Shown here one piece after another: positions 29,664-36,110 of a stretch of 64,000 bases of DNA. The notes below the pieces were generated by a model. The model had not been told where the DNA came from, searched no databases, and saw nothing but the letters and a program-made list of their open reading frames with translations. How positions within the stretch are numbered: the stretch's first letter is position 1; each line of letters opens with the position of its first letter. A program made the translations under genes and the position numbers. Source of the stretch: a virus; IMG/VR virus record IMGVR_UViG_3300026076_000002. One strand, given 5' to 3'.

Positions 29664-30011
29664 ATGGATCCAGAAGTACAAGCATTATTAAACGTATATC
29701 AGAAACGTTTGAGTGATTCACAAGCACAGTCTATTGCATATGAAGCAAAGATAATGGTGTTGAATACTCAGATACAGCAGATGGGAGAAACAATAACTCA
29801 ATTACAATCAGCACCCCCACCCCCACCAGTACCAGCACCAGTTGCAGTAAGTAGGAGTCCTATTATGCAACCAGAACCTGAACCTACACCTGAACCACCA
29901 AAGGTTAAGGCAGTACCTGCATCTAAGGCAAAGAAAGCACCTAAGAGTAGGACGTTAAGAAATCAAAAACCTGCTGCGAAGAGTGCTGCTGCTAATGCTG
30001 GAGAATTTTAA
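29664..30011 (+). CDS. coiled-coil + Pro/Lys-rich protein ending in NAGEF
   Basis: Heptad-like N-terminal half, then PPPPPVP/EPEPTPEPP, then a basic tail. Confidence 0.7.
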   Translation: MDPEVQALLNVYQKRLSDSQAQSIAYEAKIMVLNTQIQQMGETITQLQSAPPPPPVPAPVAVSRSPIMQPEPEPTPEPPKVKAVPASKAKKAPKSRTLRNQKPAAKSAAANAGEF

Positions 30012-30753
30012 AGAAGAACAATTAATATTTTACGTAGCAATACCTGGCAGTGGTTGGTCAAAACTATCACTGCTACTATCTTGCTGTAAAAAATTAAATC
30101 TTAATAATACTGACAGGTCTATAGAAAGACAGGAATGTGGTAAGAATGGAGTACCTGAAATAATACATCATAAAGGTGCTTACTGGGATCCTATGATGGA
30201 GTTTGGTGATGGGTTTGATGATATTGGTAAGAACTATACTAAGCAAGAGTTTATAGAGGAATGCTTAAAACCATTTAAAGAACATGATGATAGGAACTAT
30301 CTTATCAGATCTCATTTCTTTGCCGAGACTCATAACCTTAATTGGTTAACAGAGAACTTCCCTAACAATAAGATTATATGTGTTCTTAGAGAAAGGCAGT
30401 TAAGTTTAGAAGGTTGGTATTCTGGTATGACCTTTACTGGCAACTATCCTCAGTACAAAGCATGGATGGAATGGGAGCATAGACATGATGATGACCACCC
30501 ATCACATAAAAAGAAACTATGGTCTTTGATACAAAGACATGATAAGATGTTAAGGCAATGGGTATTGGAAAATGATAGTAGGGTATATGTAATAAATCCT
30601 AATAGAAGATTCTTAAATGATCTAGACTATTCTTGGGATAGAGAAGGCATAGAAGAATATAATAAACTGATGCTAATACACCAGTTTTATAAATGTGATT
30701 ATCCACATTACGATTCACCTTTTGTATTATACAACTGTAACGACTTATGGTAA
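29995..30753 (+). CDS. sulfotransferase-fold protein A
   Basis: IFYVAIPGSGWSKL (5'-PSB-like loop), LIRSH, IICVLRE (3'-PB-like); paralog of the next gene; ATG start at 29995 chosen. Confidence 0.6.
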   Translation: MLENFKEEQLIFYVAIPGSGWSKLSLLLSCCKKLNLNNTDRSIERQECGKNGVPEIIHHKGAYWDPMMEFGDGFDDIGKNYTKQEFIEECLKPFKEHDDRNYLIRSHFFAETHNLNWLTENFPNNKIICVLRERQLSLEGWYSGMTFTGNYPQYKAWMEWEHRHDDDHPSHKKKLWSLIQRHDKMLRQWVLENDSRVYVINPNRRFLNDLDYSWDREGIEEYNKLMLIHQFYKCDYPHYDSPFVLYNCNDLW

Positions 30754-31523
30754 GAGATGAGCAATTAGTATTCTTTCTTGGTATACCAGGATCAGGATGG
30801 GCAAAGATAGACTCTTTGTTGAGGTGTTGTAGTAACTTTAAATTTAATATGTCTGACTACAACGAAGATCGTTGTATGAAGCATGAAGGAAGATATTACG
30901 TTGAACATAAGGGTCATTTCATAGGACCTGGTATGACATATGGTGAGAAGTTTGATGATATACCTGAGAATTATACTAAGGAAGAGTTTATACAAGAATG
31001 TATTAGACCGTATGAGGATATTAATGATAATGATAACTATATGATTAAGTGTCACTGGTTCTGTGAGGAACATAATATACGTTGGTTGTTTAAACATTTT
31101 CCCAATAATAAGTACATATGTGTACTAAGGGATAGAGACCTCTGTGATGACCGTTGGCTGACCTCTATGACGTTTGATAAGGATTACCCTAGATATACTG
31201 CTTGGATGGTTAAGGACGATCCTGACGAGTCTGCTGGTGTAGGTAATCACTGTAAGGAGAATGAAGATAACTTTAAAGAGATAAACCATAGACACAATGT
31301 ACAGTTAAGAGCGTTTGTAAGACGTACAAAGAACTCTGTTATTATATCTCCTACTAGGTTTACTTTAGGTAAGATGGGGTTTGTGTGGGATCAGAATGGT
31401 GAGTTTGAATACACTGCATATATAAGAAACTACTGCGTAGATTATTCAATTTATACCAGATCCCCCAGTTGGGATACTGCTATTGCATTTATTAATTGTG
31501 AGGATGAAATTGGTTATGGATAA
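30747..31523 (+). CDS. sulfotransferase-fold protein B (paralog of A)
   Basis: VFFLGIPGSGWAKI, MIKCH, YICVLRD; shares HKG, FDDI..NYTK.EFI.EC and WL..FPNNK motifs with A. Confidence 0.6.
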   Translation: MVRDEQLVFFLGIPGSGWAKIDSLLRCCSNFKFNMSDYNEDRCMKHEGRYYVEHKGHFIGPGMTYGEKFDDIPENYTKEEFIQECIRPYEDINDNDNYMIKCHWFCEEHNIRWLFKHFPNNKYICVLRDRDLCDDRWLTSMTFDKDYPRYTAWMVKDDPDESAGVGNHCKENEDNFKEINHRHNVQLRAFVRRTKNSVIISPTRFTLGKMGFVWDQNGEFEYTAYIRNYCVDYSIYTRSPSWDTAIAFINCEDEIGYG

Positions 31524-32688
31524 ACCAACATTGTTCATGTGTATAGGTACAGGTTGGAGTGGTACAAGTCCACTGTACTATACTTTAGGAGATTGGAATA
31601 GATATTGTCATTGTGGACATTTAAAAGAAAACAAATATCTAGAGCACATATATCATTATAGTATTGGAGATTTTTATACTTTAGATAAAAAGAAGGTAAC
31701 ATTTCGTAGAGTAATGCATGAGACCTTCCGTGATGATCCAGATAATGAAAAATTTATGGGGTTTGGTTTAAGAGATAGACCAGCACAGGTGATGTATACA
31801 TCAGGTGCTAATGCTCATTGGGATAAAGAATTTGTAGATGATTTCTTCACACAACCACATACATGGGAAAAATATATTAACTACTATAAGACGCATTGGG
31901 AGGCAGTAGTTCAGAATGGGGAATATAAAGCAGTATCAGATTTTTCAGTTAATAACATTTATTTTCCAGAAGACTATGTACAGGAAATAGCAAGAGAATT
32001 AAAACCACATTTTAATGTTAAGATAATTATAACGTGTAGGGATCCTGTTAGAAGGGCATGGTCTAAGAATCAATTTAGATGGTTCCAAAGAAAGAAACGT
32101 GCTGGATGTCAAGATCCTTGGCATATGTTTTGGCATGGTATTCTGAGTAAAGATAGACATTTATGTGGTTATCAGATGGATGTTGTAACTTTATATACAG
32201 AAGGTTATAAAAGATGGTCTGAAGCGTTTGGTGAAGAAAATGTCCATATGACAGTGATGGAAGAACTATGGGAACGTAATGGTGACAAATGGGGTGGTAA
32301 GGAAGCGATGGAAAAACTATCAGATTTTATAGGATATAAGATAGATGATATGTTTCCAAATGTTTACGTTCCTGAGATGGGATCTAAAGCACCTAAACTT
32401 AAAAATCTGTCAGACCAGTGGATGAGTGACGTACTAGATCTAAGTTATGATCAACAGCAAGCAGCTAGATGTATAATGAATGAGGCATATACTGAGTGGG
32501 AACGTGTGTTTGGTTCTATACCAAAAGCATGGATGACTATAGATAAAGTTGAAGTTCCTAAGTTAGATGACATGACTACAGAAGAAACTTCAAAAGCACT
32601 TGAAGATATAATGAAAATTGATCCTGGATGTAGACCTACATCCAGTAAAGGTTTACAAATGTTAGCAGACAATGAGTGGCACACCTAA
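31516..32688 (+). CDS. sulfotransferase-family protein C
   Basis: LFMCIGTGWSGTSPLYYTL..KE, DFS and KIIITCRDPVRRAWS match the heparan/LPS-type sulfotransferase PSB and PB motifs. Confidence 0.8.
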   Translation: MDKPTLFMCIGTGWSGTSPLYYTLGDWNRYCHCGHLKENKYLEHIYHYSIGDFYTLDKKKVTFRRVMHETFRDDPDNEKFMGFGLRDRPAQVMYTSGANAHWDKEFVDDFFTQPHTWEKYINYYKTHWEAVVQNGEYKAVSDFSVNNIYFPEDYVQEIARELKPHFNVKIIITCRDPVRRAWSKNQFRWFQRKKRAGCQDPWHMFWHGILSKDRHLCGYQMDVVTLYTEGYKRWSEAFGEENVHMTVMEELWERNGDKWGGKEAMEKLSDFIGYKIDDMFPNVYVPEMGSKAPKLKNLSDQWMSDVLDLSYDQQQAARCIMNEAYTEWERVFGSIPKAWMTIDKVEVPKLDDMTTEETSKALEDIMKIDPGCRPTSSKGLQMLADNEWHT

Positions 32689-35304: not shown

Positions 35305-35305
35305 G

Positions 35306-36067
35306 CTAACAATGGCATGGTTTATCACCACAGCAATCTAAGTAGTCACCACGTGCAGGTTTCTCCCACAATTCCTTATCTACAGGATTAGTTGGGAATG
35401 GTATTGCTGTTTTATTACCATCATCCAATATTTGTTCTTCTACTGGAGAAATGTATTTAAGGTTAGCATCATATCTTAATATTTCTTCTAACCTTTCATC
35501 ATACCATGCTACAGGAATAGGTAACTCAAGAGTCTTAAGGTACTCTTCTTTGTAAAGATATAACAATTCATAACTTAAGAATATAGGATTCTCGAAATTA
35601 GGTAATTGATCTAGGAAATGTCTGCAAGTATTCTCTTCACGTATTCTAAACTGTTGATGGTCTAATATATTTTGATCTCTTCCTATAACACATATCTGAG
35701 TTTCTAGTCCACACAGTTCACAATTCATGGCAAACTGCATGATATTAGGTGACCACTTAGTTCCTTTAGATTCTATACCTAGTGGTACACTGATACTTGT
35801 AAAGTAGTAGTCACTCTGTGACCAATCAAACTCCTTTAGTGTACTAGGATCTCTCCAGTATGCTGCAAATGGTTCTGTTAACCTATGTGCTTCCCAATAG
35901 TTATCAAGTAAACTCTTCCAACCAAATACATCTTCATGTAGGGAAAAGACTTTTGACCATAGATGATTTCCAGAACCTTGGGGTCCAGTTAAGATAACTA
36001 TTTTCTTCTTTTTATTGGAAGATTTAACTGCCGTTGTTAAGTCGTTAGTTGAGAACACATATTTCAT
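35306..36067 (-). CDS. sulfotransferase/P-loop-fold protein E
   Basis: [43 protein letters not shown]; paralog of D. Confidence 0.6.
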   Translation of the reverse strand: MKYVFSTNDLTTAVKSSNKKKKIVILTGPQGSGNHLWSKVFSLHEDVFGWKSLLDNYWEAHRLTEPFAAYWRDPSTLKEFDWSQSDYYFTSISVPLGIESKGTKWSPNIMQFAMNCELCGLETQICVIGRDQNILDHQQFRIREENTCRHFLDQLPNFENPIFLSYELLYLYKEEYLKTLELPIPVAWYDERLEEILRYDANLKYISPVEEQILDDGNKTAIPFPTNPVDKELWEKPARGDYLDCCGDKPCHC

Positions 36068-36081
36068 TGTATACACTACTA

Positions 36082-36110
36082 ATTATAACACATAAATAAT
36101 CTCATATCAA
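36082..36110 (-). promoter_or_regulatory. sigma70-type (early) promoter for the E-orf-pebS-D operon
   Basis: Minus strand TTGATA-N17-TATAAT with extended TG. Confidence 0.8.
36091..36098 (+). promoter_or_regulatory. putative late promoter for the second fibre gene
   Basis: CATAAATA, nested in the spacer of the opposite-strand sigma70 promoter. Confidence 0.6.

Follow-up and report, generated by a model that had tools for sequence, protein, structure and literature searches.

Which chemistry, and on which target, is encoded by the block of enzyme genes that lies between two fibre genes (positions 29,664 to 36,110) in the IMG/VR virus record IMGVR_UViG_3300026076_000002? We analysed a stretch of 64,000 nucleotides of this record, here called the window. 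Its source is an uncultured marine T4-like cyanomyovirus. The original prediction, made from the letters alone, proposed a pathway-like modification cluster in which five sulfotransferase-fold proteins (A, B, C, D and E), a class I S-adenosylmethionine (SAM) methyltransferase (MT) and a ferritin-like di-iron protein (FE) are grouped around pebS, the phycoerythrobilin synthase gene. All its open reading frames (ORFs), and the loop and strand motifs of the five proteins, were found in place (Table 1). The results below lead us to lean, with limited confidence, towards a conserved cassette acting on one common acceptor.

Core genes travel together in several gene orders

The family of D and E is large in marine metagenomes (1,115 sequence clusters), and a D relative occurs in at least 564 IMG/VR stretches. 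None of 50,697 GenBank phage records holds a D/E relative, and tblastn searches with D and FE found no GenBank phage. We mapped the window proteins onto 80 loci seeded with D and 80 seeded with FE, and counted a locus only if at least 5 kb was present on both sides. MT is found in every FE-seeded locus (29/29), together with D in 26, E in 25 and an A-like protein in 19 of them. Around D, FE and MT are each present in 22 of 23 loci, E in 19, A/B in 7, C in 2 and pebS in 1. The pathway-like cluster of the original prediction thus survives the test for independent assortment, with MT, FE, D, E and the A-like gene travelling as a set through several arrangements.

At least three gene orders can be distinguished. 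Type I, the order of the window, consists of the fibre gene, the small gene P115, optionally A and B, then MT and FE, the latter convergent with D; a variable slot separates D from E, which is divergent from the short fibre gene and gp13. In type II, MT on the minus strand is followed by an A-like gene, an expanded paralogue family, FE, E and D, and then by two radical-SAM/SPASM genes and a GDP-mannose 4,6-dehydratase gene. Type II is carried by a complete, psbA/psbD-positive cyanophage of 248 kb that has no fibre gene near the cassette. Type III and the layout of locus L083 comprise MT, FE, a class I glutamine amidotransferase gene, E, D and an A-like gene, often with a cupin gene. Contigs of this last kind are CsgG-positive and psbA-negative and, by this gene content, fit the pelagimyophage profile (PMC7029224). 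Both D and E are retained in all phage layouts. C changes place from locus to locus and is found in the E-D, FE-MT or MT-A interval. Of the 29 FE-seeded loci, 15 are without a fibre or gp13 homologue up to 5 kb from the cassette.

Some individual loci have features of their own. In one pelagimyophage-like contig (L161:1502-6997), genes for CsgG, curlin-repeat proteins, a FecR-domain protein and a CHASE2-adenylate/guanylate cyclase lie directly upstream of the cassette. CsgG, curlin and the CHASE2-cyclase had made us consider this contig as a bacterial chromosome, which we rejected because curli operons are typical of pelagimyophages (PMC7029224). Two paralogous radical-SAM proteins follow a type II cassette at L122:10197-12723, both with the SPASM match N-terminal to the radical-SAM core, and the GDP-mannose 4,6-dehydratase comes after this pair. 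The family expanded between the A-like gene and FE in type II consists of 320-residue paralogues without a Pfam match, and hhalign did not link it (u319/u321) to C. Two loci come from assemblies labelled as cellular. A Rhodospirillaceae metagenome-assembled genome (MAG; L172) carries D and E along with neck, fibre and terminase genes of T4-like type in the same order as in the window, and a Nitrosopumilaceae MAG (L169) carries D; both resemble contigs of cyanophages or myophages that were binned with cellular genomes.

Bacterial copies and an APS-kinase-like gene

MT, an A-like gene, FE, a cupin gene and D also occur together in the chromosomes of Massilia atriviolacea (L170, NZ_CP051166, 1431-10651) and Janthinobacterium (L171), where a segment of about 10 kb contains MT, the A-like gene, FE and D. 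These copies are flanked by ordinary chromosomal genes (AhpF, aldehyde dehydrogenase, CdsA), with one gene of the PF00884 sulfatase superfamily and one for a LigT-like 2H phosphoesterase next to them. Partial gene sets are present in Bacteriovorax and Chitinophagales assemblies. As a fibre gene is absent near about half of the FE-seeded cassettes, and as bacterial copies exist, fibres are unlikely to be an obligatory target.

An ORF of the adenosine 5'-phosphosulfate (APS) kinase family directly follows the cassette at L158:11822-12253 (45.9 bits, E 8e-13); it has a canonical GLPGSGKT loop and covers the first 90 of the 152 model positions. A homologue 44% identical to this ORF lies next to an E-like gene in a Chitinophagales MAG contig (L173, near position 7359).

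Sulfotransferase fold as the best description of A to E

A and B are tandem paralogues (38% identity, E 6e-60) with the motifs AIPGSGWSK...VLRE and GIPGSGWAK...VLRD, respectively. D and E are likewise paralogues (38.5% identity, E 2e-40), with a common GPQGSGNH loop and the strand motifs IVRDQNI and IGRDQNI, and C carries GTGWSGTS...CRDPVRRAWS. BLAST found no similarity across the groups A/B, C and D/E. hhalign did not unite the three groups either; its alignments were not significant and were confined to two short patches, namely the P-loop or Gly-rich loop (A-like against D/E) and the FP...hhhh-R-D strand (A-like against C). Judged from the sequences, the shared beta-x-x-x-S-G loop and hydrophobic-R-[DE] motif are a real but very thin likeness, and structural support is therefore needed.

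The motifs had originally been taken for the 5'-phosphosulfate-binding (PSB) and 3'-phosphate-binding (PB) elements of sulfotransferases that use 3'-phosphoadenosine 5'-phosphosulfate (PAPS). The loops are not canonical PSB elements, with the Lys/Arg missing in all five window proteins. The Arg at the end of the strand, which occupies the place of the 3'-phosphate-binding Arg, shows no variation in D/E or in the close A/B family and very little in C and in a wider A-like alignment that includes members from the other phage layouts and from bacteria. C has the full 3'-PB motif RDPVRRAWS, in which the Arg is followed by a Ser about eight residues on. A/B keep R128 and have R136 at +8, and D/E keep R106 and have an invariant Q114 at +8, the position of the 3'-PB Ser. 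The loops read PGSGW in A and B, GWSGTS in C and QGSGNH in D and E. Most A-like relatives have PGS[KR]WS, with the K/R one position later than the PSB Lys/Arg; A and B of the window have Gly at this position and an invariant Lys three residues on. GPQGSGNH of D/E corresponds position for position to Walker A (GxxGxGK[ST]), with K replaced by N.

We then compared AlphaFold2 (AF2) models of B (23 sequences, predicted local distance difference test score 89) and D (20 sequences, 84.6) all-against-all with representative chains. The eight best of 48,161 chains for B are all sulfotransferases, with TPST1 at Z 9.5 (root mean square deviation, rmsd, 3.7; 178 residues aligned) and Stf9 and OLS-ST at Z 8.3; kinases begin at Z 7.1. 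For D the 16 best entries are all sulfotransferases (Z 10.1-11.7, 156-171 residues aligned), comprising OLS-ST (Z 11.7, rmsd 3.2, 162 aligned), CurM-ST (11.3), TPST1 (11.1) and 3-OST-3 and NDST1 (10.8), and the first kinase follows at rank 17 (Z 10.1, 141 residues aligned). With kinases within 1-2.5 Z units of the sulfotransferases for both models, this is a call at the level of the fold only.

C reaches 19 bits against Sulfotransfer_1 (cut-off 22; Pfam E 1e-3), eight of its 16 relatives match this family (best 2e-5), and its family profile finds in the PDB the bacterial sulfotransferase 3rnl (2.4e-6) and heparan-sulfate 3-OST-5 (2e-4) in matches that span the RDPVRRAWS region. On these profile matches we take C for a genuine sulfotransferase homologue. 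Seven of 19 A-like relatives match Sulfotransfer_3 (best E 2.6e-5), and A and B of the window have no significant match to the curated sulfotransferase models. D and E match no sulfotransferase model in sequence, and neither Pfam nor PHROGs has a family for them. PDB searches with single-sequence or close-family profiles of A/B and D/E yielded nothing meaningful. Taken together, the models of B and D and the profiles of C and of the A-like relatives support sulfotransferase-fold as the best description of all five proteins, as had been proposed. PAPS would be their most likely donor, in view of the fold, the strand-end Arg, the Pfam matches of relatives and the APS-kinase neighbour.

Methyltransferase, di-iron protein and PebS

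The family assignments of MT and FE are confirmed. In motif I of MT (VLDVGCG) residues V36, D38, G40, C41 and G42 are invariant in 17 sequences, as is D57. The window protein has no Pfam match; its relatives match Methyltransf_23/25/11 (best 1.2e-6), and the PDB matches are mostly class I methyltransferases and weak (E 0.04 or weaker). In FE the ligands E50, E84xxH87 and E144 are invariant, and E174 and H177 of E174xxH177 are conserved in at least 90% of 16 diverse sequences. The FE family is small, with 71 representatives among 1.84 billion proteins. Its members show Pfam matches to PaaA/C, DUF455, rubrerythrin, desaturase, MiaE, R2 and AurF, which are too weak and scattered to place FE in a subfamily and thereby to name its reaction type.

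PebS of the window is 66% identical to the crystallised P-SSM2 PebS (2VCK, E 3e-96), with E 2.6e-10 to PebA (2x9o) and 1e-17 to Fe_bilin_red. The placement of the cluster around pebS does not stand as a general feature. pebS lies within 5 kb of D in a single full-flank locus, and in cultured phages it is found elsewhere, beside cobS or denV. The slot between D and E that it occupies here is filled in other loci by C-like genes, by an extra D/E paralogue, by DctP and DUF2061 genes or by nothing. pebS, C and the duplication that gave A and B are extras of particular lineages. In some type I phages, as at L001:6523-7812, genes for a DUF2061 protein and for a solute-binding protein of the DctP type occupy the E-D slot.

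A proposed tailoring cassette and competing explanations

On balance we favour, as slightly more probable than not, a conserved mobile enzyme cassette with lineage-specific additions that tailors one shared acceptor. Its core would consist of MT, FE and two ancient paralogues, D and E, of a new sulfotransferase-fold family. The Sulfotransfer_3/TPST-like A protein would be its usual companion, duplicated in the window as A and B, and the Sulfotransfer_1-like C and pebS would be accessory genes inserted in variable slots. Within the cytoplasm of the infected cell the enzymes would share one acceptor, which FE might oxidise or hydroxylate using O2. MT and the sulfotransferase-fold proteins could then add methyl and, most likely, sulfate from PAPS to hydroxyl or amino groups, whether newly formed or already present. 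As both paralogues are kept in all phage layouts, D and E may be a working pair. The genes, their folds, the conserved motifs and the linkage are observed here, and donor, step order and acceptor are inferred. The more likely acceptor would be a small metabolite or a sugar/glycan precursor, followed by envelope glycans and then by fibres.

Several observations weigh against this explanation. The loop Lys/Arg of the 5'-PSB (PKxGTT or GxxRSGTT type) is missing in A, B, C, D and E, and no window protein reaches a curated Pfam cut-off for sulfotransferases. D matches sulfotransferases better than kinases by only about 1.6 Z units, and Foldseek on the PDB ranks P-loop kinases level with sulfotransferases and does not separate the two classes; the assignment of D/E is therefore moderate and at fold level. 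ATP sulfurylase (PF01747) and CysD/CysH (PF01507) were not found in five cassette-bearing phage records, and two complete cyanophages also have no APS kinase. SAR11 hosts are not known to synthesise PAPS, which would make sulfation hard in the pelagimyophage-like carriers. The best PDB match of FE is symerythrin (E 0.01), and its ligand set fits a ferroxidase or rubrerythrin centre equally well. The core has no scaffold-building enzyme, glycosyltransferase or transporter.

Two alternatives concern the target. The cassette could hydroxylate, methylate and sulfate the flanking Thr/Ser-rich fibres or another virion protein and so tune adsorption. This would agree with the constant position of window-lineage cassettes between the long fibre and the short fibre or gp13 (19/23 D-seeded loci), with the location of A to FE on the strand of the late structural genes and the 5' leader that FE has in common with the capsid gene, and with a protein-tyrosine sulfotransferase as the best structural match of B; operons of hydroxylase, methylase and sulfotransferase genes have also been predicted to act on co-encoded T4 tail-collar/collagen-like proteins (PMC2938197). 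However, the FE-seeded cassettes without fibre or gp13 within 5 kb include one in a complete psbA-positive cyanophage, the Massilia and Janthinobacterium copies lie among the chromosomal genes named above, and D, pebS and E stand behind a putative early-type sigma-70 promoter. We consider fibre modification distinctly improbable. Remodelling of the host envelope, by adding O-methyl and sulfate groups to sugars of lipopolysaccharide (LPS) or exopolysaccharide, would mask receptors and block superinfection in the manner of the LPS clusters of large cyanophages. Surface-modifying genes are known from the host-recognition cluster of marine T4-like phages (PMC7029224, PMC9602691), GDP-mannose 4,6-dehydratase follows the type II cassette, C resembles carbohydrate 3-O-sulfotransferases, and the PF00884 gene that adjoins the A-like gene in Massilia belongs to the sulfatase/phosphoethanolamine-transferase superfamily. 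Yet the core encodes no glycosyltransferase, flippase or signal peptide, and the same cassette is found despite the very different envelopes of the likely hosts (cyanobacteria and SAR11-type bacteria). We regard this explanation as unlikely; it overlaps with the favoured one, as a sugar precursor is one of the candidate acceptors there.

The other two alternatives concern the enzymes and their grouping. A/B and D/E might not be sulfotransferases at all and instead be degenerate, kinase-like P-loop proteins that bind nucleotides, carry out another chemistry or serve as non-catalytic partners, for example in nucleic-acid or nucleotide modification with a di-iron hydroxylase and a methyltransferase. 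The absent sulfotransferase Lys/Arg and the Walker A-like GPQGSGNH with its K to N change point in this direction, as do adenylate and guanylate kinases as the top Foldseek matches of D (E 5e-4), a fungal kinase P-loop as the best PDB match of the A1 profile, and isopentenyl-transferase, polynucleotide kinase and RNA-kinase folds at Z 6-9. Two FE relatives match MiaE (2.4e-5), and the LigT-like phosphoesterase in the Massilia locus would suit such a role. On the other hand, Mg-ATP chemistry is unlikely without the Walker Lys and Ser/Thr, the all-against-all ranking places sulfotransferases first for the B and D models with longer alignments, A-like relatives match Sulfotransfer_3 in sequence, and in two relatives the cassette has an APS-kinase-like neighbour. 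A kinase-like identity thus has, in our estimate, a rather small chance of being correct. Finally, the genes might form no pathway and be unrelated morons that have accumulated at a hypervariable site. A/B, C and pebS are indeed present in some loci and absent from others that are otherwise collinear, and their slots can also contain DctP, DUF2061 or extra paralogues, but MT, FE, D and E remain linked across at least three rearrangements and in bacterial genomes. This explanation is very improbable overall, being close to refuted for the core genes and standing for C and pebS only.

In a bolder form of the cassette explanation, which we consider speculative and rather unlikely, D/E and the A-like proteins would represent new sulfotransferase families, with a catalytic Lys that was lost or shifted, and would make, with FE and MT, a new sulfated and methylated product. 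This product would be a metabolite or a modification of a virion or host-surface component. If so, it would be common among the abundant marine myoviruses that infect cyanobacteria and probably SAR11, and its synthesis would be the first sulfation pathway encoded by a phage to have a defined role in infection.

The fixed enzyme set, stable through rearrangement in phages and bacteria, points to one shared product. If sulfated, this product would tie phage infection to the marine sulfur and PAPS economy and add a new auxiliary chemistry to those of the photosynthesis, bilin and LPS genes. The D/E family marks abundant, uncultured T4-like phage lineages, and five families so far annotated as hypothetical gain fold-level names and a defined linkage group.

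Comparison with known systems

The window proteins resemble PAPS-dependent sulfotransferases (TPST1/2, NDST, 3-OST, CurM/OLS) in the α/β P-loop-derived fold of the models, the Gly-rich loop after strand 1 and the Arg that ends the central strand, and C also in its RDPxxRxxS 3'-PB motif and significant profile matches. They differ in loops that lack the PSB Lys/Arg, and A/B and D/E belong to no curated family. Cyanobacterial toxin clusters contain pairs of sulfotransferase and adenylylsulfate-kinase genes (cyrJ/cyrN, sxtN/sxtO) along with methyltransferase and oxygenase tailoring. A sulfotransferase-fold gene beside an APS-kinase-type gene is common to these clusters and to some relatives of the cassette, though not to the window, and the phage cassette has no polyketide synthase, non-ribosomal peptide synthetase or amidinotransferase to build a scaffold.

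Bacterial operons that combine a hydroxylase, a methyltransferase and a sulfotransferase, in part with a PAPS synthetase, were predicted to modify tail-collar/collagen-like proteins (Iyer, Abhiman, Aravind 2010, PMC2938197). They share with the cassette the three chemistries, the neighbourhood of phage-fibre-type proteins seen in the window lineage and, in two cassette relatives, an APS-kinase-like gene. Those operons use a 2-oxoglutarate-Fe(II) dioxygenase whereas the cassette has a ferritin-like di-iron protein, and the fibre adjacency of the cassette is not conserved; both systems are predictions. The host-recognition and LPS/cell-wall clusters of marine T4-like cyano- and pelagimyophages (PMC7029224; PMC9602691) occupy the same niche between giant structural or fibre genes and neck genes and likewise place enzymes in a plastic island. 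They are glycosyltransferase-rich and variable, in contrast to the fixed set of four or five genes without glycosyltransferase described here. The literature that we searched on the host-recognition island, LPS clusters, pebS and hydroxylase-methylase-sulfotransferase operons does not describe this cassette.

Layout and expression of the window locus

Beyond the cassette the window contains genes for gp13, gp14/gp15-type proteins, sheath, terminase and capsid-type proteins, which together with pebS mark its T4-like cyanophage origin. The closest cultured-phage match of gp13 is 60% identical (SynMITS9220M01), and that phage has no enzyme genes from its giant structural protein to gp13. The cassette genes are tightly packed, with overlaps of 1-8 nt at A/B, B/C, C/MT, FE/D and D/pebS. 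The likely true starts of A, C, MT and E deviate slightly from the ORF list and are those used in Table 1 (29995, 31516, 32688 and 36067).

Table 1. Features of the cassette region and its flanks in the window.
Feature	Position	Strand	Basis and remarks
Long repeat-rich fibre or structural protein, 1579 aa	24869..29608	+	ORF; flanking context, outside cassette; homologues flank type I cassettes; giant 'structural protein' at same position in cultured relative
Terminator-like hairpin 3' of fibre gene	29635..29656	+	9-bp stem, 5 GC pairs, T-run
P115, small Pro/Ala-rich protein between fibre and cassette	29664..30011	+	N-terminal matches 40-73% identical in most type I loci
A, sulfotransferase-fold protein, Sulfotransfer_3/TPST-like family, tandem paralogue of B	29995..30753	+	ATG at 29995
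B, sulfotransferase-fold protein, paralogue of A	30747..31523	+	AF2 model; Sulfotransfer_3 matches among family members
C, Sulfotransfer_1/heparan-3-OST-like sulfotransferase homologue, accessory, movable	31516..32688	+	Pfam and PDB profile matches
MT, small class I SAM methyltransferase, core	32688..33206	+	Motifs; Pfam matches of relatives
5' leader of FE (TACTACATCCC...ACGGAG), common to putative major capsid gene	33216..33257	+	11-mer at 33216 and 50567 only
FE, ferritin-like di-iron carboxylate protein, no assigned family, core	33258..33932	+	Conserved ligands; scattered ferritin-like Pfam matches
D, sulfotransferase-fold protein with GPQGSGNH loop, core	33929..34558	-	Convergent with FE, 4-nt overlap; AF2 model
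pebS, phycoerythrobilin synthase, accessory insertion between D and E	34551..35192	-	Similarity to PebS
E, paralogue of D with Cys-rich C-terminal tail, core	35306..36067	-	BLAST; locus maps
Near-consensus sigma-70-type promoter TTGATA-17-TATAAT with TG, upstream of E-pebS-D	36082..36110	-	11/12 matches
Short fibre protein, 404 aa, flanking context, gp13 next	36160..37374	+	Tail-fibre PHROGs, E 1.8e-8

The 11-mer TACTACATCCC has just two copies in the 64 kb (in the segments 33216-33257 and 50567-50593), each followed by ACGGAG and an ATG, and these precede FE and the putative major capsid gene. The GC content of FE (0.447) is close to that of the putative capsid gene (0.456), while the neighbours of FE have 0.33-0.37. 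The capsid-like leader and the GC content suggest strong late expression of FE, which leaves room for a stoichiometric, ferroxidase or peroxidase role. The promoter upstream of E is the best sigma-70-type site in the region (11/12), where the number of such sites equals the chance expectation; it gives a weak hint that E-pebS-D may be read by the host polymerase. Late-promoter boxes of the form TATAAATA are no more frequent than expected by chance and allow no conclusion on timing.

Rfam searches found no RNA family in the window, and PHROGs and NCBIfam gave no match for A, B, C, MT, FE, D or E. The sole megablast match is a 10.6-kb single-cell virus contig that spans A, B and half of C. P115 has a coiled-coil N-terminus and a Pro/Ala-rich tail, and its gene runs 17 nt into A. 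E shares with its type I orthologues a Cys-rich C-terminal tail (...CCGDKPCHC, ...CC; window 35306-35340, L001:5731-6411, L004:8484-9233), which is absent from D and from the E-like proteins of type III. This tail could be a metal site or a lipidation-like signal.

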